From an uncultured Acidimicrobiaceae bacterium (lineage in GTDB: Bacteria; Actinomycetota; Acidimicrobiia; Spongiisociales; UBA5794), in assembly GCA_964397045.1 (NCBI GenBank), contig CAYNHF010000047.1:10885-74884 (forward strand): a stretch of DNA of 64,000 nucleotides, given 5' to 3'. The position numbers and the translations under genes are program-made. The notes beneath the pieces were generated by a model. The model searched no databases and had not been told where the DNA came from. It saw only the letters and a program-made list of their open reading frames with translations. Positions within the stretch are counted from its first letter, which is position 1. Every line of letters starts with the position of its first letter. Positions 15,777-51,940 of this stretch are shown in pieces.

Positions 15777-16895
15777 TCACTCGACAATCGTGAGTGCCCG
15801 ACTGGACAGGTTCAGCCGCTCAGCCCCGGTTTCGCCCATCACGACGATGTCCTCGATCCGCACCCCGAATCGCCCGGGAAGGTAGATCCCGGGCTCGATG
15901 GAGAAGGCCATTCCGGCGGCCAAGGGCGTGTCGTTACCCTCCACGATGTAGGGGTCCTCGTGGACCTCGAGCCCGATGCCGTGACCTGTACGGTGGATGA
16001 ACTCTTCCCCGTAGCCGGCGTCCGCAATGATCCGCCGAGATGCTCGATCGACATCCTGCGCGGGCACCCCCACACCCGCCGCCTGAAAGCCAGCCTCCTG
16101 CGCTTCATACACGACGGCGTGTACCCGCCGAACCTCATCTGGTGCCGACTCACCGACGTGGAAGGTGCGAGAGGTGTCAGACGTGTAGCCACCGAGCGAC
16201 CCACCGAAGTCGGCAACCACCGTGTCGCCCACTTCGATGATTCGCTCCCCCGCGTGATGATGCGGCGAAGCGGCGTTGGGGCCGGAACCCACGATCGCCA
16301 TTCCGGCCGCGTCGTGACCCTCCTCCACCAGCATGCCGGAAATGTCCCGGGAGAGGTCGATCTCGCTGCAACCTGAGAATCGCATGCCGGCCAGCCGCCC
16401 GGCGACCCGGTCGGCCGCGGCCCCCGCAGCCCGCAACAACGCGATCTCCCCTTCGTCCTTGCGTACCCGCAGGGCCTCCGAGATCGGTTGCGCGGATACG
16501 AAGGTGGCATCCGGCATCTCGCCTTGGAGCCGCAGCAGAAACACCGCCCAGGTCTTATCACCAACTGCCACTACACCGGTCCGCCCGCCGGTGCCTGCCA
16601 GCTGCCCGACGATGGCTACCGGGTCCTCAGTCTCACCCCACGGCCGCAACTCGAAAACCCCAGGCCGCTCGAAGACGCGGGCAGCCTCCAAGCCGGGCAC
16701 CACGAGCGTTGCGGCGTCGTCTCGAGGGATCACCGCCATGGTCAGGCGCTCCAGCGGAGGCGCGTCGTATCCGGTCAGATAGGGAAGATCCAGGCCCAGC
16801 GAAACCAGGAGGAGATCGATATCGTGGCGAGCCATCGCCTCGCGAGCCCGCGCGATGCGCGATCCATAGTCGAAGGTGGGATTGGAAGCGGTCAA
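15777..16895 (-). CDS. Xaa-Pro aminopeptidase / M24 family metallopeptidase
   Basis: Creatinase-like N-domain plus M24 catalytic domain with metal ligands (HRTGHGIGLEVHE, EPGIY). TTG start overlapping the lipB-lipA stop (TTGA). Confidence 0.85.
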   Translation of the reverse strand: MTASNPTFDYGSRIARAREAMARHDIDLLLVSLGLDLPYLTGYDAPPLERLTMAVIPRDDAATLVVPGLEAARVFERPGVFELRPWGETEDPVAIVGQLAGTGGRTGVVAVGDKTWAVFLLRLQGEMPDATFVSAQPISEALRVRKDEGEIALLRAAGAAADRVAGRLAGMRFSGCSEIDLSRDISGMLVEEGHDAAGMAIVGSGPNAASPHHHAGERIIEVGDTVVADFGGSLGGYTSDTSRTFHVGESAPDEVRRVHAVVYEAQEAGFQAAGVGVPAQDVDRASRRIIADAGYGEEFIHRTGHGIGLEVHEDPYIVEGNDTPLAAGMAFSIEPGIYLPGRFGVRIEDIVVMGETGAERLNLSSRALTIVE

Positions 16896-18559
16896 TGTGC
16901 CGCCACCAGCGCCTCTCGCGCGCGGTACGAAGAGCGAACCAGAGGCCCCGCTTCAACGTGGGGAATTCCAAGGCGCCTGCCTGCCGTGGTGTAGCGGTCG
17001 AACTCCTCCGGTGCGACGTAGCGGTCGATGGGACGATGGCGCGGCGTGGGACGCAGATACTGGCCGATGGTGACGATGTCGACCCCCACCGCGCGCAGAT
17101 CGGCGAGCGCCCCCATCACCTCGGCCTCGGTCTCCCCCATCCCGACGATCAGCCCCGATTTCACGTTCCCTTCCGGCCGCATGCGCTTGGCTCGGCCCAG
17201 GAGTGTCAACGAGCGGCCGTAGTTGGCAGCGGTTCGGATGTCGCGTTGCAGGCGCAGCACCGTTTCGGTGTTGTGGTTCAGCACCTCCGGCGCCTCTGCC
17301 AAGAGAGTCTCCAACGCGGTGAGGTCTCCCTTGAAATCTGGGATCAGCGTCTCGACGCTGCAACCCGGTACCAGGGTACGGATCTCCTTGACGGTGGACG
17401 CGAAGACTGCAGAGCCCCCGTCTGGCAGGTCGTCACGATTCACCGAGGTCAGGACGGCATGCTCCAATTCCAGCGCCGCCACCGCCTGCGCTACGCGCGT
17501 CGGCTCATCCATATCGACGACGTCCGGGCGCCCGGTAGTGACATCACAGAAGCTGCACGCCCGCGTGCACTTGTCCCCCAACAGCATGAAGGTGGCGGTC
17601 CCCTGACCCCAGCACTCATAGATGTTGGGGCACTTGGCCTCTTCGCAGACAGTATTGAGATCCAGCCCTCGCATCAGCTTCTTGAGATCGCGATACCCCT
17701 GGCTATCGAGTTCTGCCTTCACTCGCATCCACTCCGGGCGCTCCGGTTCGCCGGCGAGCAGACCCCGAACCGTGATCGGCACTTCGTCGCGGCGCCGCGG
17801 CGAGAAGACGCCTGCCGCCACCCTCGCATCCACGTCGAACGGAGCGGAAGACGCTCGTCCCGAGAAGGCCCCATACTGAGCTTCGGTGGCCGGGGACGCG
17901 AAGACCGCCGGAGCATGACGAGCCACCGCTTGCACCACTTCTTCCATCCTGACGCTGGAGCCGAGTAGTTCCTGCAGCGAAGTGACGGGACGATCCGCGA
18001 TCCCGCAAGGGACGATCTTCGAGTAGTAGGCCAGGTCGGGATCGACATTGAGCGCGAAACCGTGCATGGCGACGCCGCGGGCCACCCGTACGCCGATTGC
18101 GGCAACCTTCCCCAGCCGCGTCCAGACCCCGGTGAGCCCCGGCTCGGTCCAGGCCTCGACACCCACGTCCGCCAGGGACGCGATGAGCATCGCCTCGATC
18201 CGGCGAACGTGGCCGACCATATCGAAGCCGTTCGGAAGACGCGGCACGGCTCCGATGGGATAACCGACGAGTTGCCCGGGACCGTGGTACGTGATGTCTC
18301 CGCCCCGATCCACATAGTGGAGCGACGCGCCGATATCGGCGAGTTGCGCCTCGGGAATGATCAGGTTCGACCCGTCGCCCACCCGACCGATCGTGTAGGT
18401 GTGCGGATGCTCCAGCAGCAGCATGTAATCGTCCCGAGTGCGGCCGAACACGCGGCCTTCCCAAATCGTCCGCTGCAGATCCCAGGCCTCGTCGTAGGGA
18501 AGACGCCCCAGCCAGCGAATCCGAAGGACGTCTGCGGTGTCCAGAGGACGGCCCGTCAC
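16892..18559 (-). CDS. lipB/lipA: In-frame fusion of octanoyltransferase LipB (N-terminal) and lipoyl synthase LipA (C-terminal), 555 aa
   Basis: LipB motifs (HYVDRGGDITYHGPGQLVGYPI, HGFALNV). A ~50-aa linker. LipA motifs (CEEAKCPNIYECW, radical-SAM CTRACSFC). GTG start at 18559 overlaps the sucB TGA (GTGA). Single uninterrupted ORF in the track. Confidence 0.85.
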   Translation of the reverse strand: MTGRPLDTADVLRIRWLGRLPYDEAWDLQRTIWEGRVFGRTRDDYMLLLEHPHTYTIGRVGDGSNLIIPEAQLADIGASLHYVDRGGDITYHGPGQLVGYPIGAVPRLPNGFDMVGHVRRIEAMLIASLADVGVEAWTEPGLTGVWTRLGKVAAIGVRVARGVAMHGFALNVDPDLAYYSKIVPCGIADRPVTSLQELLGSSVRMEEVVQAVARHAPAVFASPATEAQYGAFSGRASSAPFDVDARVAAGVFSPRRRDEVPITVRGLLAGEPERPEWMRVKAELDSQGYRDLKKLMRGLDLNTVCEEAKCPNIYECWGQGTATFMLLGDKCTRACSFCDVTTGRPDVVDMDEPTRVAQAVAALELEHAVLTSVNRDDLPDGGSAVFASTVKEIRTLVPGCSVETLIPDFKGDLTALETLLAEAPEVLNHNTETVLRLQRDIRTAANYGRSLTLLGRAKRMRPEGNVKSGLIVGMGETEAEVMGALADLRAVGVDIVTIGQYLRPTPRHRPIDRYVAPEEFDRYTTAGRRLGIPHVEAGPLVRSSYRAREALVAAH

Positions 18560-20019
18560 TTCAGCTCTTGCTCCCAATCCCACGTTTCGAGGTTGTCCTT
18601 GATCTTGCTCAAGAACAGCACCGCGGTAGAACCATCGAAGGCACGGTGGTCCCACGACAGCCCGAGATACCCGATGTGATGGATCCCGATGGCGTCGCTG
18701 CCGTCAGGCATCGTCACCACGGTCGGTCGCTTCACAATCGTGTCGGTCGACAGAATGCCGACGTTGGGCACGTTGATGATCGCCGCCGTCTGGAAGGATC
18801 CATAGGGGCCGGGGTTGGTGATCGTGAAGGTCGAGCCTGAGATGTCATCGGGATCGAGTTTGCCGTCGCGTGCCTTGACTGCCAGATGGCGGATCTCCCT
18901 GGCGAGAGTGGAGAGTCGTTTCTCTTCCGCTCGACGCACCGTCACGACGACCAGTCCCTCCTGGTTCATGTCGACGGCGATACCCAGGTTCACGTTGCCG
19001 TGGAATACTTGGGTCCCCTCTTCCAGGAACAGGGACGAGTTGACTACCGGATATTCCCCGAGTGCGTCCAATGTGGCCCGGACGATGAACGGAAGGTAGG
19101 TGAGCGAGTAGCCCTCGGTCGCTTTCCACGTTTCGCGATGCGCGGCTCGTACCTTTTCGACGTTCTCGTAGTCGACTTCGATGGATGCCCACACGTGGGC
19201 GGCCGTCGCTTTCGCTTGACCCATGTTGTTGGCGATCCTGGTGCGGAGCCGGCTCAGCGGCACGACCGAGTCCTCGCCACCGAATGCCACCGGAGTCGGA
19301 GCTGCAGCCGCGACGGGCGCCTGCCCAGCATCGGCTGCCGGTGCGGCGGTCGCAGTAGCCGGCGCGGCCGGGGGCGCTTGCTCCAGCGTGACCTTGGCCG
19401 CGGCTGCAGTACCGGTGCCTGCCAAGTGATCCATCACGTCGCGGCGGGTGATACGACCGCCCTCTCCGGTGCCCGGCACCAAATCGAGGTCAACTCCATG
19501 TTCTGCCGCGAGCCGCCGTACGACCGGAGAGAGGATCCCGCGGCGGGGCGCGCCGTCGACTGCCGTGGGCACCGAGGGAGCAGCCGGAGCGTGCGGTGGT
19601 GTTGCGGGCACGGCATCTGGTGCCGAGGCCTGGGGCGTTCCCGGGGTGGGGGCTGCCGGCTCGGGCTCGGAAGTGGCAGCCACGGCAGCAGGCGAACTCG
19701 AAACAGAATCGACGGCGGCCTGGACCGGGGTCTCGTCGGAGGTCGCGGCATCCGGCGCCGGAGCCGCCGCGGCGGGAGCACTCCCGTCGCCTATCACCAC
19801 GAGCGGCGTCCCCACCGTCACGGTTTCGCCTTCGGGAACCAGGATCTCCTCGATCACTCCTGCGACGGGAGAAGGCACCTCGGTGTCGACCTTGTCCGTC
19901 GAGATCTCGAGCAGCACCTCGTCCTCCGCGATCGAGTCTCCCTGCTGCTTGGCCCAACTGAGGATGGTTCCCTCTGTGACCGTTTCCCCCAACTGGGGCA
20001 TGGTGACCGTTATCGACAC
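18556..20019 (-). CDS. sucB: Dihydrolipoamide acyltransferase E2 component (PDH/ODH complex)
   Basis: One lipoyl domain (EISTDKVDTEVPSP). Ala/Pro-rich linkers. E3-binding domain. Catalytic domain with DHRAFDG. Confidence 0.9.
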   Translation of the reverse strand: MSITVTMPQLGETVTEGTILSWAKQQGDSIAEDEVLLEISTDKVDTEVPSPVAGVIEEILVPEGETVTVGTPLVVIGDGSAPAAAAPAPDAATSDETPVQAAVDSVSSSPAAVAATSEPEPAAPTPGTPQASAPDAVPATPPHAPAAPSVPTAVDGAPRRGILSPVVRRLAAEHGVDLDLVPGTGEGGRITRRDVMDHLAGTGTAAAAKVTLEQAPPAAPATATAAPAADAGQAPVAAAAPTPVAFGGEDSVVPLSRLRTRIANNMGQAKATAAHVWASIEVDYENVEKVRAAHRETWKATEGYSLTYLPFIVRATLDALGEYPVVNSSLFLEEGTQVFHGNVNLGIAVDMNQEGLVVVTVRRAEEKRLSTLAREIRHLAVKARDGKLDPDDISGSTFTITNPGPYGSFQTAAIINVPNVGILSTDTIVKRPTVVTMPDGSDAIGIHHIGYLGLSWDHRAFDGSTAVLFLSKIKDNLETWDWEQELK

Positions 20020-38414: not shown

Positions 38415-38746
38415 CGTGTCACCGCAGCGTCGTCGTCGGATACATCCACGAACACCTCTCCCGCGACCACCTTCGTGGGGTACACCGGCACCGGGCGGGT
38501 CGCGGGAAACGAAGCGGGCTTGCCGGTCTCCAAACTGAACTCCGACCCGTGTCGCGGGCACTCCACCTCGAGCCCGAAAAGGTCGCCCTCTGCCAGCGAA
38601 GCTTCAGCATGCGAACAGCGGTCACCAATGGCATAGACCTCGTCGCCACGACGGAAGACGGCGATCCGCTGCGACCCGATCTCGACTCGCACACCCCGTC
38701 CTTCCGGCAGCTCCTCGAGCTCTGCGATCCGAACTGGGTCGGTCAT
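38411..38746 (-). CDS. Rieske [2Fe-2S] domain protein (suf-associated ferredoxin)
   Basis: CSH...CPRHG Rieske ligand boxes. 111 aa. ATGA overlaps on both sides. Confidence 0.8.
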   Translation of the reverse strand: MTDPVRIAELEELPEGRGVRVEIGSQRIAVFRRGDEVYAIGDRCSHAEASLAEGDLFGLEVECPRHGSEFSLETGKPASFPATRPVPVYPTKVVAGEVFVDVSDDDAAVTR

Positions 38747-40083
38747 ACCCGACCCTCCTGCTGCGCCGCGACGTACTTCGCGTTGATCCATTCCTGCACC
38801 GGCTCGGCCACGGTTGCAGCCGGGAATCGGTTGAGAGCATCCTGAAAGAAGCCCCGCACCTGGAGGCGATCCGCGCGGCGCCGATCGAGGCCACGGCTCA
38901 TCAAGTAGTAGCGCTGCTCCTCCTCGAGCGGTCCAACGGTCGAGCCATGGCCGCATCGCACATCGTTGGCCAGGATCTCGAGATTCGGCACCGACTGTGC
39001 CGCCGCTCCGTCCGAAAGGAGGAGGTTGCGGTTGGTCTGAAACGCGTTGGTGCGCTGGGCAGTCTCCTCGATGCGGATCATCCCGGTGAAGACCGATAGG
39101 GCCTCATCCTCGACACCGCCCTTGAGGTACATATTCGAGTTGGTGCTCTCGCCAACGTGACGCATGAAGTAGCGGTAGTCGAGAATCTGGTGCAGTTCTC
39201 CGAAGTAGGCGCCAACGACATCCGCATTCGAACCCCTGCCCTCGAGGTCGACCTCGAGGTGGAGCCGGGAGAGGGACCCACCGAGACCGGCCTCAGCCAG
39301 CGTCACCGAGGCGTCGTCCGCCGCGACCGCCCTGGCGTGCGCAATCGATCGCGTCGCAGCTCCCCAATGCTGGATGACCGTGACGTCGACGTTGGCATTG
39401 GTGCCTGCGGTGATCTCGAGTCGAGGTACCACAACGGCGTCGAGGGCATCCGGCGACCGGTAGCCGACGATCACGGAGAGCTGCGAAGAGTCGCCGGCAT
39501 CAACGATGACATGCGGGAAACTCACGGCGTGATCGGCCGCTGCCGTGATGTCTATGAACACGGGAAGGCGGGTCACTGATCGAGGTGGGGCATGAACGAT
39601 CACCGCATCCGGAGAGAACGCCCCGTGAGCCGCAGCGAAGATGTCGGTGTCCTCCGCAACCCCGGATCCCACGAGTCGCCTGGCAACCGCCTCGGCATCA
39701 GCAGTGATATCGCGAAGCGACGCCACGATGACATCGCCGGAAACCGGGCCCACCGAAGCTATCCCATCGACGACGCGGACACCGGCAGCTACCTCACCCA
39801 ACGCGGCGGCAAGTGCATCGTTCGCGGAGAGATCCTCCAGGACCCCAGCTGCGCTGGAGTAGTCGGTGAGATCGAAGTCGAGATCGACATATCGCCACAT
39901 CTCTTCTTCCGATCTCGGCATCGACAGCTTGTCGTAGACGGCTCGCGCGCGCACTCGGGAGTCGCGCAACCAGCCAGGCTGATCCGCGAGCACGCGTTCC
40001 AGTTCAGAGGTGTCGAGGGGATTCAAGGGACGAGGGCTCCTGAGGGGGTTCAGACAGGCGAGGGAGCCGCAGCCTAACCCCAC
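38743..40083 (-). CDS. sufD: SufD (SufB/SufD family Fe-S assembly scaffold protein)
   Basis: C-terminal SufBD core (ILANDVRCGHGSTVGPLEEEQRYYLMSRGL). The start is uncertain: GTG at 40083, or a TTG at 40026 about 10 nt after AGGAG. Confidence 0.75.
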   Translation of the reverse strand: MGLGCGSLACLNPLRSPRPLNPLDTSELERVLADQPGWLRDSRVRARAVYDKLSMPRSEEEMWRYVDLDFDLTDYSSAAGVLEDLSANDALAAALGEVAAGVRVVDGIASVGPVSGDVIVASLRDITADAEAVARRLVGSGVAEDTDIFAAAHGAFSPDAVIVHAPPRSVTRLPVFIDITAAADHAVSFPHVIVDAGDSSQLSVIVGYRSPDALDAVVVPRLEITAGTNANVDVTVIQHWGAATRSIAHARAVAADDASVTLAEAGLGGSLSRLHLEVDLEGRGSNADVVGAYFGELHQILDYRYFMRHVGESTNSNMYLKGGVEDEALSVFTGMIRIEETAQRTNAFQTNRNLLLSDGAAAQSVPNLEILANDVRCGHGSTVGPLEEEQRYYLMSRGLDRRRADRLQVRGFFQDALNRFPAATVAEPVQEWINAKYVAAQQEGRV

Positions 40084-44352: not shown

Positions 44353-45009
44353 CTACTGCTGAGCCAACAGGCTCTCCACGATGACGAGGTCAACCGGGTA
44401 GGTGACCTTCAGGTTCCGGGGCAAGCCCTCAACAAACCTCACCTCGTGGCCAGCGCGAAACACCAGCACGCCGTCCTCGGTCGCCGTCTCGCCGCGTTCA
44501 ACCGCTCGCTCGTGGGCGGCGCGGAGTATCTGGGTGTCGAACGCTTGCGGGAGTTGTACGTCGTGCAAGATGCTGCGATCGATCTCCGCTTCCATGACAT
44601 CTCCACCAATCGAAACCGAGAAGGGGATCGAATGCGTGGGGACAACGGCCGGGGCGTCCACCGCGACAACTCGATCGATCAGCTCCGCCGTGATGAGAGG
44701 ACGCGCCGACTCGTGGAGCAACAGGCGGGGGGTGGTGACGGCCTGCAGCGCGCGACATACCGACTCCTGCCGTGTCTCGCCGCCCGCGACCAGCTCGATC
44801 CGTCCGGCGGGATCGTCCGGCAGCAAAGCGGCCAACGCCGCGCGCGCTCCCGGTGGGTGCGCCAGCACGATGCGCTCGATCGCAGGGTGAGTCAGCAGCG
44901 GTTCGAGCGAAAACAGTACGAGTGGCTTGTCTCCGACGCGCAGCAATTGCTTGGGTACACCGCTGCCCATGCGGCTCGAACGTCCTGCCGCCAGCAATAT
45001 GGCATCCAT
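44353..45009 (-). CDS. ispD: IspD-family cytidylyltransferase (2-C-methyl-D-erythritol 4-phosphate cytidylyltransferase-like), solitary with no ispF
   Basis: LLAAGRSSRMG, PKQLL, GGETRQESV and C-terminal NLKVT motifs. 218 aa. Confidence 0.8.
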   Translation of the reverse strand: MDAILLAAGRSSRMGSGVPKQLLRVGDKPLVLFSLEPLLTHPAIERIVLAHPPGARAALAALLPDDPAGRIELVAGGETRQESVCRALQAVTTPRLLLHESARPLITAELIDRVVAVDAPAVVPTHSIPFSVSIGGDVMEAEIDRSILHDVQLPQAFDTQILRAAHERAVERGETATEDGVLVFRAGHEVRFVEGLPRNLKVTYPVDLVIVESLLAQQ

Positions 45010-45137: not shown

Positions 45138-46289
45138 TCAGAAGGAGTCTGCCGCCACCATTTGGAGGTCCCAACTGGCAGCGGAGTCGAGGCTGCGGCC
45201 TTTCACTACCCAACCAGCCGGATTGGAATGGTCGGACGTAGGCCGCACCATCGCCTTGCCCGCAAGGCGGGTCGGTTCGGATGAAGCTGCCGGCGTGGTG
45301 AAGCCGGCGTCCCGGAGCAGCCCCACCAACTGAGGGTCCAATGACCGGGTCCAGATCCGCAGATCGCCGAAGCGGCCGCCCTCGGTCGCAACGGCAAGTA
45401 GTGCAGAGGCGTCCGCATGCGACCGGAACGACCAATCCACGATGTTCACACGAGAACGCCCCATCGAGTTGTGGAGCACCATGAAACCGGAGAGGTCGGG
45501 TTCTCCTATGTACAGGAATCGATAGGCGGCTCGCGGGTTGTCGAACCGCCATGAGAAGAACCGCGCGTCGCGGACCTGAGTGATGGCTTCGCTCGCCGGT
45601 TCTGCGGCGGCAGCTGTGGCCATTGCCTCCGGCCGCGGCCTGCAACTCACCTGGACCTCCCCTCGGGTCGTTGCGTCCACCGCGTCGAGCCGGCCGAAGG
45701 TCATCGATCCGGCCGAGGAGCGGATGCGACGACCCAGCCTGGCCATGCCCCGAACTGTGTCGTTGCGGGGCACCCTGGCCACCAGCTTGCGCCGCGCGGT
45801 ACCGGCATCGGAAGCTCGAGCCAACTCTGCGGTGGAACCGATCGAACGCCACCCCATCGACACGACCGAAGCCACGTAGTTGGCAGCCGTCGGACTCAGG
45901 TTCAGCACATGGGGATAGCCCTTCGCTGCCAGATCGGCGAATGCGAGGTCGGAGAGCCTTTCGAACAGGCCCTGGTCGCGATGGGCTGGGTGGATCAGCG
46001 TGTCGGCGGCACACGGGATCGCAGCCTCCAGCCCTTCTCCGATATTCCAGCTCGCACCGAATATGCCCCGCATCCCGACTACTTCGTCTCCATGCAGCGC
46101 CACGTAGATGAGCGGCTCGACAACATACGGGTTCTCGAAGTACTTCCATCGGAGATAGGCGAGGTTGACTCGAAAGCCCGAAGCCCAGTGGAGACGCTGC
46201 AGGCGGGCAATGCCGTCTGCCATTCCCGGCTGGACCGGCACCACTCGGTAGTCGCGCACCACTGAGGTTGCACCGCCGGCGTTCATCAC
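45138..46289 (-). CDS. Double GNAT-fold acyltransferase (FemAB/BioF2-like or Eis-like architecture). Its ATG overlaps the stop of the FkbH-like gene
   Basis: Two GNAT-like halves (motif A HRDQGLFERL in the N-half). 383 aa. Confidence 0.65.
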   Translation of the reverse strand: MMNAGGATSVVRDYRVVPVQPGMADGIARLQRLHWASGFRVNLAYLRWKYFENPYVVEPLIYVALHGDEVVGMRGIFGASWNIGEGLEAAIPCAADTLIHPAHRDQGLFERLSDLAFADLAAKGYPHVLNLSPTAANYVASVVSMGWRSIGSTAELARASDAGTARRKLVARVPRNDTVRGMARLGRRIRSSAGSMTFGRLDAVDATTRGEVQVSCRPRPEAMATAAAAEPASEAITQVRDARFFSWRFDNPRAAYRFLYIGEPDLSGFMVLHNSMGRSRVNIVDWSFRSHADASALLAVATEGGRFGDLRIWTRSLDPQLVGLLRDAGFTTPAASSEPTRLAGKAMVRPTSDHSNPAGWVVKGRSLDSAASWDLQMVAADSF

Positions 46290-47365
46290 CAGCTTCGACT
46301 CTCGGGCTCCACGACCTTCACATGAGGAGGATACGGGTCAACGACAGAGGGGTCATGGCGAAAGATGATCCGGTCGCCCTCCCTCCGCAATTCAGCGAAT
46401 CCGGCCATCTTGTACGTCAGGTACATGAGCCGGTTGCGGTCGGTCCGCACGAACTCCGCCTCGACCACGGCACCGCTCTCGGCTGCCGTTTTGAGCAGGT
46501 AGGTCAGCAACACTTTGCCGACGCCACGAGCCATCACGCGACAGGACATCAACAGCAGTGCGAGGTTCCATACCCCGTCACGCTGCTCCACAAGCGCCAG
46601 CCCGATCTTCCCGTATGTGCCGTAGCGGTCATCGAGCCCCGCGATGATGAGGCGATGGTCGCTCGACTCGCGCAATGCCTCGAGCTCGTCGTAGGAATAG
46701 GTCACCCCGGTGGAATTGAGCTGATTGGTGCGAACGGTCAACTCCGACACCCGAGCCAGATCACCCCGCTCAGCATCACTCAGTGTGAACACCATATCCA
46801 AAGAGGCCAGGAAGTCCTCAGTCGTCTGCGCCGACGCCTCGTCCGTTTTGCGGCGGTCCTCCGCGAGGTACATCTCTCGTCTCCGCCGCGAGTCCTCGGT
46901 AACGAATTGCGGCTGCATATCGCGGCGGTCGGGCAGTGCCAGGTAGTCGCCGCTGTCGATTGACCTGACGCCAGCGACCCCGGCTGCGACCTCGTCGCGT
47001 TCGAAGGGCTCGTCGTCGACGAACGCGACGGTGTCTGCTCCGATATTGAGCGCTCGAACGATCTCAGCCACAGCTTCGGACTTCGCTCCCCACCCGACCT
47101 GCGGGTGCAGGAAGAAGTCGGCGACGCCGAACTCACTCAACTTCGCCATGGCAATGTCCGCATCGTTGCGGCTGGCGACGGATTGCAGAATCCCGCGATC
47201 GTCCAGCGTCTGGAGGACATCGAGCACACCCGGCCGGAGAACAACATCGGGAGATTCGAGCAACACCCCATCCCAGATCGTGTTGTCGAGGTCCCACACC
47301 ACGCATTTCACCCCAGGCAGAGCTATTCCGCCTGGGGTATCGGATGCAGCCGTCGGCGAACTCAT
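46286..47365 (-). CDS. FkbH-like protein (HAD-IIIC phosphatase domain plus C-terminal acyltransferase-like domain; glyceryl-ACP loader type)
   Basis: HAD motif I VVWDLDNTIWDG, motifs II and III, and a C-terminal GNAT-like region. 359 aa, typical FkbH size. ATGA overlaps at both ends. Confidence 0.75.
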   Translation of the reverse strand: MSSPTAASDTPGGIALPGVKCVVWDLDNTIWDGVLLESPDVVLRPGVLDVLQTLDDRGILQSVASRNDADIAMAKLSEFGVADFFLHPQVGWGAKSEAVAEIVRALNIGADTVAFVDDEPFERDEVAAGVAGVRSIDSGDYLALPDRRDMQPQFVTEDSRRRREMYLAEDRRKTDEASAQTTEDFLASLDMVFTLSDAERGDLARVSELTVRTNQLNSTGVTYSYDELEALRESSDHRLIIAGLDDRYGTYGKIGLALVEQRDGVWNLALLLMSCRVMARGVGKVLLTYLLKTAAESGAVVEAEFVRTDRNRLMYLTYKMAGFAELRREGDRIIFRHDPSVVDPYPPHVKVVEPESRSW

Positions 47366-48516
47366 GAGGCACCACGCTGCAGGCGAGCCCGCTCTCGTCT
47401 CGCGATCATCAGCTGCTGGATCTCTGTGCTGCCCTCGATGATCTCCATGATGCGGGCATCCCGAAACCAACGTTCGACGGGCGCAGCCGAATGCACACCG
47501 ATCGCACCGTGAACCTGCACGGCGTCGCTGGCGACGGCAACTGCGGTCCGTGAGGCGTGGTACTTCGCCATGAGCGTGGCCCCAATGGCTTCCGGTGACG
47601 CCGTGTCGCGCAGCTCGCCGGCACGCACACACAGCAGCCGGGCTGCCTCTGTCTCGACTGCCATGTCGGTCAGCTTCCTGGCAATGAGCTGGTGATCGCC
47701 AATCGGCTTGCCGAATTGCTCCCTGGATTCGGCGTATCGGAACGACGCTTCCATGCTTGCCTGAGCAATGGCGACGCTCCCCCAAGCCACCCCGAAGCGA
47801 CCAAGGTGGAGCGGAGTTGCCGCGATCAGCGCACCGGGCATGGATCGAGCGCCGACTCTGGCCTCGCCGGGAACCCGACAGTGATCAAACGTCAGGCTGC
47901 CGAGCATGGAGGCCCGCAAACCCATCATGCCCGAGATTGGCTGCACTTCGAGGCCGGCGGTGTCCCGGGGCACCAGGAAGCCGCCGAGTTCACCCGACTC
48001 ATCAAGACGGGCAATCACCAGAAACACGTCTGCGATCTGGGCGAAGCTGATCCAGCGCTTGGTTCCGCGAAGCACGTAGTTGTCGCCGTCTGGCTTCGCC
48101 ACGGTCCTGATGCTGGCAGCGTCGCTGCCGGCCTGCGGTTCGCTCAGGGCGAACGCGGCAATCTTGCCCTCGGTGAGCAACGCGGGCAACCACTGATCAC
48201 GCAGGCGCTTGCTGCCCAGCTTGAGAACGGCCTCGACCACCATGTCGTGCACGGTGAGCAGCGATCGCACAGAAGAACACCCCTTGCCGATCGCTTCATG
48301 CAGCGCACCGTAGGAGGCCATGTCGAGGCCGCGACCGCCACGTTCGACGGGTGCCTGCGAGCCCAGATACCCGGCGCCAACCACAGCAGCCACAACGTCG
48401 GCAGGGATCCGCTCTTCCCTGTCGAACTCGGCTGCTCGTGGGACAAGATGACGATCGGCGAATTCGGTGAACTCCTCGCGGAACTCCCCCAACGCAGCAT
48501 CCCCCCTGGTCGTCAC
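47362..48516 (-). CDS. Acyl-CoA dehydrogenase family protein (FkbI/ZmaE-like position)
   Basis: Full ACAD three-domain architecture. 384 aa. Confidence 0.85.
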   Translation of the reverse strand: MTTRGDAALGEFREEFTEFADRHLVPRAAEFDREERIPADVVAAVVGAGYLGSQAPVERGGRGLDMASYGALHEAIGKGCSSVRSLLTVHDMVVEAVLKLGSKRLRDQWLPALLTEGKIAAFALSEPQAGSDAASIRTVAKPDGDNYVLRGTKRWISFAQIADVFLVIARLDESGELGGFLVPRDTAGLEVQPISGMMGLRASMLGSLTFDHCRVPGEARVGARSMPGALIAATPLHLGRFGVAWGSVAIAQASMEASFRYAESREQFGKPIGDHQLIARKLTDMAVETEAARLLCVRAGELRDTASPEAIGATLMAKYHASRTAVAVASDAVQVHGAIGVHSAAPVERWFRDARIMEIIEGSTEIQQLMIARRERARLQRGAS

Positions 48517-48783
48517 TCAAGCGTCTCCCGACTCCGTCACGAGACCTCGCTTGGTCGCAACCAGCGCAGTGATGGCACCGATCGTCGCAAGATTGTCCCT
48601 CTCCAGGTCCTCGTCATCCAATTCGACCTCGAAGGTCGATTCGATGTACATGACCAGTTCCATGGCAAACAACGACGAGGCCCCACCAGTGACGAAGATG
48701 TCGTCTTGGTCCGTGAGATCGGGATTCGCCAGGTGCCCGGCGAGAAACCCTCTGACCTGCCCATTGATGTCGTCAGACGTCAC
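48517..48783 (-). CDS. Acyl/peptidyl carrier protein (phosphopantetheine-binding, FkbJ/ZmaD-like position)
   Basis: 88 aa. Helix-II serine motif TGGASSLFAMELV. Acidic. GTG start overlapping the upstream TGA. Confidence 0.7.
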   Translation of the reverse strand: MTSDDINGQVRGFLAGHLANPDLTDQDDIFVTGGASSLFAMELVMYIESTFEVELDDEDLERDNLATIGAITALVATKRGLVTESGDA

Positions 48784-49661
48784 CGCGACCCCCCCTTGCT
48801 CACATGAGTTCCATAGGCATAGAACCCCTGTCCCGACTTCCGGCCGAGCCGACCGGCATCGACCATCTGCTTCAGGAGCGGGGCAGGACGATACTTGCTG
48901 TCCCCGTACTCGTCGTGTAGTACCTCCACCGATCGGAGGATCGTATCGAGCCCGATCAAATCGGCAGTTTCGAGGGGCCCCATCTCATGCCCGAAGCACT
49001 CCTTGAAGATCTCATCCACCTGGCTGGGTTCGGCGACGCCGTCCTGCACCGTGAAGATAGCCTCGTTGACGGTGAGCATGAGTACCCGATTCGATACGAA
49101 CCCTGGCGAATCCTCGACGTAGACCCCGCGCTTGTTCATCTGCTCGAGAAGCTGCCGGGTTGTCTGCAACGTCTCATCTGATGTGTGAAATCCCCTGATG
49201 ACCTCCACCACCGGTTTGAGCGGTACAGGATTCATGAAATGCATCCCAACCACGTAGCCGGGACGATCAGTCACGGCCGCGATCCTGGTGATGGGTATTG
49301 CGCTGGTATTCGCCGCGAACCTTGCTCGCGGAGGACACACACGATCCAGGATCTCGTAGACACCTCGTTTCACTTCGAAGGATTCGGTGGTGTTCTCGAC
49401 GACGAAATCTATGTCATCCAGGGCCTCATAGTCAGTGGTGAAGGTCAGCCTGCTCATCACCTCGACTCGATCCTGCTTGACACCGTCCGAAGCTACGAGA
49501 TGGTGCAGGCGGACCGCGCTCCCGATCTCGGACTGCGCTGCGTCCAGCACTGAGGTTTCGAGATCCACCACGATGACATCATGCCCGGTCTGTGCCAGAT
49601 CCTGGGCGACGCCGCGCCCGATCACTCCGGCACCAATGACTCCCACGCGACTTATCTGCAT
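48780..49661 (-). CDS. 3-hydroxyacyl-CoA dehydrogenase (Hbd-like; FkbK/ZmaG-like position)
   Basis: NAD-binding Rossmann GVIGAGVIG plus the 3HCDH C-terminal domain. Start at ATG 49661 (MQISRVGVIGAG). Confidence 0.85.
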   Translation of the reverse strand: MQISRVGVIGAGVIGRGVAQDLAQTGHDVIVVDLETSVLDAAQSEIGSAVRLHHLVASDGVKQDRVEVMSRLTFTTDYEALDDIDFVVENTTESFEVKRGVYEILDRVCPPRARFAANTSAIPITRIAAVTDRPGYVVGMHFMNPVPLKPVVEVIRGFHTSDETLQTTRQLLEQMNKRGVYVEDSPGFVSNRVLMLTVNEAIFTVQDGVAEPSQVDEIFKECFGHEMGPLETADLIGLDTILRSVEVLHDEYGDSKYRPAPLLKQMVDAGRLGRKSGQGFYAYGTHVSKGGSR

Positions 49662-49861
49662 TACCGGACCCCCCGTGGCCCACACGCGCGGCATTCCCGA
49701 CCCGGCGACGCGCTCTACACGACTTCACATAGTAGCCGCTTGTTACTCAAAGTCACGGCGAAAATCCGCTCATGCTGGAGGGACTAATCACCCCAGGGGT
49801 TGCGAGGTGAGGCCCTTCCGAAGCGGCAGTGTGACCGGCGCACTGCCGTATGCTCCGGGCC

Positions 49862-50536: not shown

Positions 50537-51940
50537 TCAGCCGACCGAACCTTCCATCTGCAGTTCGATGAGGCGGTTGAGTTCGACCGCGTACTCCATC
50601 GGCAATTCCTTGACGATCGGTTCGATGAACCCGGCGACGATCATGGCAGTGGCCTCCTCTTCCGTGAGCCCGCGGCTCATCAAGTAGAAGAGTTGCTCCT
50701 CACCGACCTTGGAGACCGTGGCCTCGTGCCCGATCTGGGTATTCGACTCCTCGATCTCCATATACGGATAGGTGTCGGACCGGGAGTCCTCGTCGAGGAT
50801 CAGCGCGTCGCACCGGACAAATGCCCTGGCATCCTCGGCACCCGGCTCCACCCTGATGAGCCCGCGATAGCCGGCGCGCCCACCGTCCTTCGAGATGGAC
50901 TTCGACGTGATGAGCGAAGTGGTCTCGGGTGCTGCGTGCACGATCTTCGCGCCGGCGTCCTGATGTTGCCCCTCGCCCGCGAAAGCGATCGACAGCACCT
51001 CGCCGTGGGCACCCTCTTCCATCAGCCACACCGCGGGGTACTTCATGGTCAGCTTGGACCCGAGGTTGCCGTCGATCCACTCCATCGTGGCGTTCTTGTA
51101 CGCGGCTGCCCGTTTGGTGACGAGGTTGTAGACGTTGTTCGACCAGTTCTGGATGGTCGTGTAGCGGCACCGACCGCCTTCCTTGACGACGATCTCGACG
51201 ACGGCCGAATGCAACGAATCGCTCGAGTAGGTTGGGGCAGAGCAACCCTCGACGTAGTGGCAGAAGGCCCCTTCGTCGATGATGATCAGCGTCCGCTCGA
51301 ACTGGCCCATGTTCTCGGCGTTGATGCGGAAGTATGCCTGGAGCGGCTGGTCGACATGGACTCCGGGAGGGACGTAAATGAATGACCCTCCAGACCACAC
51401 GGCAGAGTTGAGCGCCGCGAATTTGTTGTCGTTCGGGGGAATGATGGTGCCGAAGTATTCCTGCACGATCTCCGGGTAGTCGCGGACCGCGGTGTCCATG
51501 TCGCAGAACAGAACCCCGAGTTCCTCGAGGTCCTCCCGGTTGCGGTGGTACACGACCTCGGACTCGTACTGGGCGGTCACACCGGCGAGATACTTGCGCT
51601 CCGCCTCGGGTATACCCAGCTTCTCGTATGTCTCCTTGATCGAATCGGGCACCATGTCCCAATCCTTGGCCTGGCCCTCTGTCGGCTTGATGTAGTAGTA
51701 GATGTTGTCAAAGTCGATCTCTTCAAGGGTGCCGCCGCCCCCCCACGTCGGCATCGGCTTGCGCAGGAACCGCTGATAGGCCTTGAGCCGAAACTCGAGC
51801 ATCCAGGCAGGCTCATCCTTCATCTGCGACATCTCGCGAATAATGGCTTCGTTCAGGCCCTTCTTGGGCTTGAACACGTAGTCCTCCTCGTCGTGCCAGC
51901 CGAGCTGATACGAACCGAGATCGATGTCGACGGTGGCCAT
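50537..51940 (-). CDS. sufB: Fe-S cluster assembly protein SufB
   Basis: 467 aa, strongly conserved SufB throughout ([42 protein letters not shown]). Confidence 0.9.

Follow-up and report, generated by a model that had tools for sequence, protein, structure and literature searches.

Why would a bacterium carry the genes for a polyketide extender unit next to an acyltransferase, with no polyketide synthase (PKS) in sight? The question is raised by a five-gene cassette of an uncultured Acidimicrobiaceae bacterium, found in a 64,000-nucleotide stretch of contig CAYNHF010000047.1; this whole stretch, the DNA that was analysed, is called the window. The cassette (minus strand, 45138-49694) joins an FkbH-type loader, a carrier protein and two dehydrogenases to a tandem GNAT acyltransferase. 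A known pathway appears to be put here to a non-polyketide use that has not been described before, and by analogy with known systems we lean towards reading it as an accessory operon for carrier-protein-dependent acylation with a glycan as the most likely acceptor.

Structure and distribution of the cassette

Pfam and NCBIfam scans assigned the five genes as follows (identifiers beginning with L or P in the text are our own):

48780-49694, minus strand: 3-hydroxyacyl-CoA-dehydrogenase-family enzyme, 304 amino acids (3HCDH_N 177.7 bits, 3HCDH 120.2 bits)
48517-48783, minus strand: carrier protein, 88 amino acids (PP-binding 26.3 bits, cut-off 20.8; predicted phosphopantetheine site Ser37)
47362-48516, minus strand: acyl-CoA-dehydrogenase-family flavoenzyme, 384 amino acids (all three Acyl-CoA_dh domains)
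46286-47365, minus strand: FkbH-type HAD-IIIC loader, 359 amino acids (TIGR01686 247.7 bits, cut-off 146.65)
45138-46289, minus strand: tandem GNAT acyltransferase, 383 amino acids (only Pfam match Acetyltransf_9, 28 bits, cut-off 25)

The original prediction had described five translationally coupled minus-strand genes, and domains, coordinates and codon overlaps agree with it. Read from the sequence, the junctions are a GTGA overlap, a TGA followed at once by GTG, an ATGA overlap and a TGATG/GTGA overlap. The GTGA overlap places the stop codon of the 3-hydroxyacyl-CoA-type dehydrogenase on the start of the carrier protein gene, and the ATGA overlap joins the FkbH gene to the gene upstream. 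As start and stop codons overlap or abut throughout, the translational coupling is real. Two of the genes have alternative starts. For the 3-hydroxyacyl-CoA-type dehydrogenase this is the internal Met12 at 49661, which gives a product of 293 amino acids; an NF004474 alignment that begins at residue 12 and a 293-residue gene call on metagenome contig L085 both fit this start. For the GNAT gene an ATG at 46286 gives 382 amino acids.

The loader, for which an exact database entry exists, matches TIGR01686 over its full length (model positions 3-320 of 323) and above the curated cut-off, in addition to 64 bits against the HAD-IIIC model. It contains HAD motif I (DxDxT) as D-L-D-N-T at residues 25-29, and the cysteine of its S-C-R-V motif (Cys275), which we take to be the catalytic cysteine, is invariant in 11 cassette homologues. 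In the carrier protein, Ser37 sits in G-G-A-S-S-L, of which the S-L pair is invariant in seven cassette carrier proteins, and the PP-binding match exceeds its cut-off; the protein scores under the cut-off of every NCBIfam acyl carrier protein (ACP) equivalog. Two doubts raised at the outset, that the HAD protein might be a generic phosphatase without the FkbH C-terminal domain and that the 88-residue protein might lack a phosphopantetheinylatable serine, can thus be set aside. An ornithine-lipid lead came from a weak match of the carrier to ACP_for_OlsHI (27.5 bits, cut-off 130) and was dropped because OlsH is described as a GH3-like enzyme, not a GNAT (PMC12493201).

By their domain matches the four genes upstream of the GNAT gene correspond in type, as had been claimed, to the hydroxymalonyl-ACP set (FkbH/J/K/I, ZmaN/D/G/E). 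Also as claimed, the cassette has no O-methyltransferase, and in 13 related loci the same four gene types are likewise adjacent without one. Such cassettes, which provide hydroxymalonyl- or methoxymalonyl-ACP, are reportedly known as ZmaN-D-G-E for zwittermicin, as FkbH-J-K-I for FK520 and as the OzmB set. Like them, the window's cassette combines an FkbH loader, a small carrier and dehydrogenases of the 3-hydroxyacyl-CoA and acyl-CoA types, and the lack of an O-methyltransferase is shared with the hydroxymalonyl branch of zwittermicin. Unlike them, it is coupled to a tandem GNAT and has no PKS acyltransferase or ketosynthase to take the unit; its hosts are uncultured non-producers from many phyla, and by score its acyl-CoA-type dehydrogenase is not clearly of the FkbI type.

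A census by tblastn covered 82 loci, 80 of them loci of GNAT relatives fetched with a 10-sequence alignment and two added separately. The 80 fetched loci all come from uncultured genomes, of many phyla. The arrangements were:

13 of 82 loci: full order of 3-hydroxyacyl-CoA-type dehydrogenase, carrier protein, acyl-CoA-type dehydrogenase, FkbH and GNAT, on one strand and tightly spaced
1 of 82 loci (L003): FkbH and GNAT only
37 of 82 loci: AMP-binding ligase (about 510 amino acids), 84-residue PP-binding protein and GNAT
31 of 82 loci: other arrangements

The 13 full loci span at least five phyla and include Gemmatimonadota, Pontiella/Kiritimatiellales (Kiritimatiellota), Verrucomicrobiota, Polarisedimenticolaceae, and Acidimicrobiales together with other Actinomycetota. 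Identical order, one strand and tight spacing in 13 independent genomes indicate that the arrangement is not due to chance. Nothing besides the five cassette genes is conserved across the full loci. In the ligase-type loci the AMP-binding ligase resembles FadD7 and MenE. Next to the cassettes, a PGA_cap (CapA-like) gene lies convergent just past the last gene in three Actinomycetota genomes (L008 11198-12220, L051 11229-12305, L077 11195-12337). A DAO-family flavoenzyme directly follows the GNAT gene in two Kiritimatiellota-type loci (L010 5095-6330, L029 6022-7227) and scores 296.9 bits with the model for L-2-hydroxyglutarate oxidase (cut-off 299).

The housekeeping surroundings of the cassette had been taken as a sign of a conserved physiological function. 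This part of the original prediction did not survive, and neither did the idea of conservation across Actinobacteria. The cassette is not conserved there, and its distribution across phyla is patchy. The best named relatives of the window's SufB (88-91% identity) are in Acidimicrobiia metagenome-assembled genomes, and three Acidimicrobiia relatives share with the window the block SufB…NucS–(IspD)–sigma–DUF4015…SufD (identity 89-90% for SufB, 76% for NucS and 67-71% for the sigma factor). No cassette-like genes were found between the NucS and sigma genes of these three relatives; the cassette is therefore inserted into a conserved housekeeping block and does not serve a function that the lineage conserves. 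The window's arrangement is present in near-identical form on four metagenome contigs, and contig L092 carries the cassette of a more divergent relative, where a 78% identical homologue of the window's IspD-like gene again follows the cassette (L092 3947-4609). From these sequence comparisons, the cassette is an accessory module, probably a horizontally moved one. The suf genes of the window are themselves split (38743-40083 and 50537-51940): about 10 kb separates SufD from SufB, an interval that encodes NucS, the sigma factor, DUF4015 and an M23 peptidase, and the same split is seen in relative L089.

Two further features border the cassette:

44353-45009, minus strand: IspD-family cytidylyltransferase, 128 bp downstream of the cassette; possible sixth component, with low confidence
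49695-49849, no strand: divergent intergenic region of 155 bp that separates the cassette from nucS, read from the sequence; presumably the promoter region

No consensus promoter was found in the 155-bp region, and matches in a promoter and terminator scan were no commoner than expected by chance. Rfam elements were absent from this region, as were a riboswitch, tRNA or other RNA near the cassette.

The tandem GNAT family and its acyl donor

The 383-residue GNAT has no NCBIfam match, and a search of its profile against the sequences of solved PDB structures gave only marginal GNAT matches. Its AlphaFold model is confident and contains two GNAT domains (predicted local distance difference test score 87.7, predicted template modelling score 0.88), and the modelled fold is Eis/N-myristoyltransferase-like and not FemAB. 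The enzyme had been labelled FemAB/Eis-like; the two-domain Eis-like fold stands, and the FemAB fold does not, as FemX and FemA are absent from the 60 best matches and neither Pfam nor the closest-fold match points to the FemAB family. Membership of the Eis family itself is not indicated either, the combination of Acetyltransf_9, Acetyltransf_17 and a C-terminal SCP2_2 domain being absent. Compared with tandem GNATs of the Eis, N-myristoyltransferase and MshD types, identity is 8-16% and both Acetyltransf_17 and SCP2_2 are missing. These enzymes use acyl-CoA, whereas the family of the cassette GNAT is fused or coupled to carrier proteins.

This family is large, uncharacterised and named by no curated model. 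A profile search of 1.84 billion cluster representatives returned 910 proteins at E<=1e-30 and 2803 at E<=1e-10, counted as representatives of clusters at 50% identity. Twelve of the first 77 homologues are at least 440 amino acids long, and all 12 carry an N-terminal carrier motif, G-x-x-D-S-L. Among newly listed best representatives, 16 of 145 reach this length, and the strict G-x-x-D-S-L pattern was matched in 12 of the 15 proteins of carrier-GNAT size. An AMP-ligase gene adjoins the carrier-GNAT fusions, and in one protein of 922 amino acids (P0269) ligase, carrier and GNAT form a single chain. In a rough neighbour-joining tree, all FkbH-linked GNATs, that of the window included, fall in one clade, which also holds three members that have kept the carrier and lost FkbH.

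The carrier-GNAT fusions are the strongest evidence that the donor of the GNAT is an acyl-carrier and not an acyl-CoA. Together with the ligase-carrier-GNAT fusion and the single FkbH-linked clade, they bear out the proposal that the carrier-bound unit is handed to the GNAT, and we regard carrier-dependent transfer by this enzyme as probable from the sequence evidence. The FkbH-linked GNATs can be told from the ligase-linked ones by only three positions (D/N, N/T at 100% vs 97%, and Y/L), which are too few for inferring the acyl group.

Haloarchaeal plasmids of cultured hosts encode distant full-length homologues (24-28% identity; L095 7833-8999, L096 7968-9095) without a carrier gene. One haloarchaeal homologue directly follows a CoA-transferase gene, so that more remote members of the family may use acyl-CoA. 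A plasmid search returned haloarchaeal GNATs only, 24-35% identical and again without carrier genes, which gave no clue to function.

Other arrangements were seen around family members. Two or three tandem GNAT paralogues, some interleaved with carrier genes, occur at L032 4333-6785, L019 8777-11083, L046 6217-11122 and L075 1729-6950, the last together with a TauD-type dioxygenase. At L087 2701-12630 and at the L088 and P0032 loci, the AMP-ligase and carrier-GNAT fusion is flanked by Amidohydro_2, an FMN-dependent alpha-hydroxy-acid dehydrogenase and NamZ, of the exo-MurNAc hydrolase family; these flanking genes give hints of a link to muramic-acid or hydroxy-acid metabolism.

Acyl group and acceptor

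By analogy with the FkbH/ZmaN pathway, the following on-carrier chemistry can be proposed. The loader would transfer the glyceryl unit of 1,3-bisphosphoglycerate to the phosphopantetheine arm on Ser37 of the 88-residue carrier. The 3-hydroxyacyl-CoA-type dehydrogenase, in the role of FkbK or ZmaG, would oxidize C3 of the glyceryl-carrier to the aldehyde, giving 2-hydroxy-3-oxopropanoyl-carrier, and the acyl-CoA-type flavoenzyme, as an acyl-carrier dehydrogenase in the role of FkbI or ZmaE, would carry the oxidation on to hydroxymalonyl (tartronyl)-S-carrier. The tandem GNAT would then move the acyl group from the carrier to a nucleophile, possibly with loss of CO2 to give glycolyl; the amino group of a cell-surface glycan precursor would be the most likely nucleophile. 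On this analogy hydroxymalonyl, or a close derivative of it, is a reasonably likely acyl group, and the lack of an O-methyltransferase argues for the hydroxy over the methoxy form. The flavoenzyme translation contains an E-G-S motif, presumably aligned with the catalytic Glu of acyl-CoA dehydrogenases.

The acceptor was approached through the genes within 10 kb of the GNAT gene, counted over both loader classes:

PIG-L de-N-acetylase: 7 loci, and in addition L067, where a PIG-L-GT4 fusion immediately precedes the GNAT gene
Sugar C-methyltransferase (Methyltransf_13/14): 7 loci
Nucleotidyltransferase resembling glucose-1-phosphate cytidylyltransferase: 8 loci
NAD epimerase/dehydratase: 6 loci
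Wzx-type flippase: 6 loci
Polysaccharide deacetylase: 4 loci
GT2 and GT4 glycosyltransferases: several loci

For the rarer sugar families chance would give about one locus or fewer, by a rough estimate and not a formal test. In L004, L010, L012 and L029, the genes that come directly after the FkbH cassette, in the same orientation, are such sugar-pathway genes. A de-N-acetylase beside an N-acyltransferase suggests a logic of removing an acetyl group and adding another acyl group, which is known from lipid A and mycothiol. These gene neighbourhoods make a cell-surface glycan, glycopolymer or precursor a plausible, if still tentative, acceptor.

The IspD-like gene downstream of the window's cassette may be a lead in the same direction. 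It scores 170.6 bits against TIGR00453 (cut-off 181.3) and is only 35% identical to the true IspD found at the same spot, in opposite orientation, in L089; on this comparison the IspD that relatives have here is not its orthologue. Homologues with 56-57% identity occur in IspD-like/SDR/Glyphos_transf operons (L093 8001-11145, L094 8001-11141), near which TarS-type glycosyltransferases and rhamnose genes indicate a teichoic-acid-type context. As IspD and teichoic-type cytidylyltransferases cannot be told apart by their TIGR00453 scores, the value below the cut-off says little, and the gene is only a lead for the acceptor.

Acylation of glycans with unusual acids, by way of carrier proteins, has precedents. 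In Vibrio cholerae O1, RfbK-O would place tetronate on perosamine. The flagellin glycosylation locus of Campylobacter jejuni holds an FkbH-domain gene, cj1302, and the known forms of pseudaminic acid include a di-O-methylglyceric-acid derivative (PMC7099621, PMC3068675). These loci resemble the cassette in having carrier-protein or FkbH genes in a glycan context and a glycerate-type acyl group on a sugar; they differ in lacking a tandem GNAT of this family and the dehydrogenase pair, and the pathways there are largely unproven. Searches for FkbH in GNAT, polysaccharide and hydroxymalonyl contexts returned only PKS and non-ribosomal peptide synthetase (NRPS) work and the mention of cj1302, and nothing usable was found on glyceric acid in actinomycete wall polymers. 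D-alanylation by Dlt is similar in that a small carrier protein brings an acyl group to a cell-envelope polymer, and relatives of the IspD-like neighbour sit in teichoic-type operons. DltB and DltD are absent here, however, the transferase is a cytoplasmic GNAT, and the carrier scores 20.9 bits against the DltC model (cut-off 68). Judged by sequence and fold matches, the cassette is outside the Eis, FemAB and Dlt families, and outside that of MbtK.

Several observations weigh against hydroxymalonyl transfer to a glycan. The flavoenzyme scores 258.7 bits against short-chain acyl-CoA dehydrogenase and only 212.7 bits against FkbI (1r2j), so that the oxidation steps rest on context. On the Deltaproteobacteria chromosome CP070692.1 (L003 8750-11122) the GNAT gene directly follows FkbH, and tblastn detected neither of the two dehydrogenases nor a carrier beside them; this locus may be a glyceroyl-only variant, and the acyl group may therefore differ between variants. 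Glycan genes adjoin only 4 of the 13 full cassettes, and no glycosyltransferase, deacetylase or sugar-nucleotide gene was found beside that of the window. The common glycosyltransferase families near the GNAT gene could be there by chance, only the rarer families being clearly enriched, and the link to the IspD-like gene may merely reflect shared descent of one insertion. Finally, all cassette hosts are uncultured genomes.

The main rival to a glycan acceptor is a soluble small molecule. The on-carrier chemistry would be the same, and the GNAT would acylate an amino acid, a polyamine, or a precursor of a low-molecular-weight thiol or siderophore. An N-acyl metabolite or an alpha-hydroxy-carboxylate chelator, for instance, would then be made in place of a decorated glycan. 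We consider this rather unlikely. The closest working analogue is the mycobactin mbt-2 locus, which reportedly consists of the ligase MbtM, the carrier MbtL, the acyl-carrier dehydrogenase MbtN and the GNAT MbtK and is said to acylate the lysine of the siderophore. In both systems a free-standing carrier is loaded and tailored by an acyl-CoA-dehydrogenase-family enzyme before a GNAT moves the acyl group to an amine, and the AMP-ligase-carrier-GNAT relatives are even more alike. MbtK, in contrast, is a single-domain GNAT of another family, without a Pfam or NCBIfam match here; the loader here is FkbH, and the MbtN model scores 49.9 bits (cut-off 700). The lack of glycan genes beside the window's cassette would suit a soluble acceptor, and the combination of GT4 and PIG-L, fused in L067 (8082-9998), with a tandem GNAT also matches the way in which mycothiol and bacillithiol are made. 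The recurrent Wzx-type flippases, GT2 and GT4 enzymes and polysaccharide deacetylases nevertheless fit polymers better, and dedicated exporter or receptor genes do not recur beside the cassette.

A variant of the glycan reading changes the transferred group. Here the GNAT would chiefly act as a decarboxylase and transferase, as in PKS loading modules, converting hydroxymalonyl-carrier to glycolyl-carrier and delivering glycolyl, for instance as an oxygen-independent route to N-glycolyl sugars. Hydroxymalonyl thioesters would be natural precursors of glycolyl, and alpha-hydroxy-acid oxidase-type genes recur near members of the GNAT family. We think this unlikely all the same, as the matches behind it are no better than those to generic single-domain GNATs, the AMP-ligase-coupled relatives have the same invariant residues yet no malonyl-type substrate, and the three positions noted above are all that sets the FkbH-linked clade apart.

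Polyketide context and significance

In all literature found on hydroxymalonyl-ACP, the unit belongs to a PKS or NRPS, and the four-gene set has so far been known from polyketide pathways only. The cassette might then be an orphan supply of extender units for a PKS or PKS-NRPS elsewhere in the genome, with the GNAT as an accessory or unrelated protein; the window covers 64 kb of a contig of 202,910 bp. Pfam scans of the larger open reading frames (ORFs) of the window found no PKS or NRPS domain (ketosynthase, acyltransferase, condensation or adenylation), the remaining ORFs all being shorter than about 375 amino acids, and the claim that the 64 kb hold no such module is upheld to this extent. 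The larger ORFs are all housekeeping genes: glutamate synthase (the largest, 1587 amino acids), a penicillin-binding protein, ABC transporters, transketolase, LipB/LipA, 2-oxoacid dehydrogenase E2/E3, methylmalonyl-CoA mutase, fumarase, SufB/D, NucS and the sigma factor. In the 13 related loci, too, no PKS or NRPS domain turned up in the ten largest ORFs on either side taken together, which goes against the possibility, raised at the outset, that the block is always embedded in such a cluster. Besides this absence, the GNAT is translationally coupled to FkbH and falls in one clade with the cassette, and members of the same GNAT family pair with ligase-loaded carriers where a PKS is absent. An orphan extender-unit supply is in our view improbable. 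A chance grouping of five genes with no relation to one another, coding for beta-oxidation enzymes, a phosphatase and an acetyltransferase, is barely credible and already contradicted by the conservation data: every enzyme family is common and the dehydrogenases score well against primary-metabolism models, but the genes overlap or touch at their start and stop codons, one and the same gene order is found in 13 genomes from at least five phyla, the FkbH model matches over its full length above its cut-off, and the entire block is missing from syntenic relatives.

Among the housekeeping ORFs, that at 16892-18703 (minus strand) combines a LipB-like lipoyl-transferase (amino acids 70-263) with a radical-SAM LipA-like domain (amino acids 375-534) and looks like a LipB-LipA fusion.

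A GNAT-coupled, PKS-free FkbH cassette is not described in the literature found on FkbH, glyceryl-ACP and hydroxymalonyl-ACP, the coverage of which is incomplete. Genome-mining tools take FkbH and hydroxymalonyl-carrier genes as a marker of polyketide extender units. Such annotations can be mistaken, since in many phyla these genes are coupled to a GNAT and no synthase was found in their vicinity.

Acylation of glycans by carrier-bound groups could extend to the whole family. We put forward, as a conjecture that falls somewhat short of likely, that the tandem GNATs form a large undescribed family of carrier-dependent acyltransferases (about 900 clusters at 50% identity) with interchangeable loaders, which would decorate cell-envelope glycans with non-acetyl acyl groups. 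The loader would be an adenylating ligase in most members and the complete FkbH/hydroxymalonyl route in this clade, a division that we offer equally tentatively. If true, this would be the first use of the FkbH/hydroxymalonyl route outside polyketide assembly, and the surface polymers of groups such as Acidimicrobiia, Gemmatimonadota and Kiritimatiellota would be predicted to bear tartronyl, glycolyl or glyceroyl amides. Confirmation would give an acyl-carrier donor, in place of acyl-CoA, to about 900 protein clusters whose only annotation at present is 'GNAT family N-acetyltransferase'. It would also indicate that the cell surfaces of abundant uncultured bacteria bear a new kind of acyl decoration, which would matter for phage recognition, immune recognition and chemotaxonomy.

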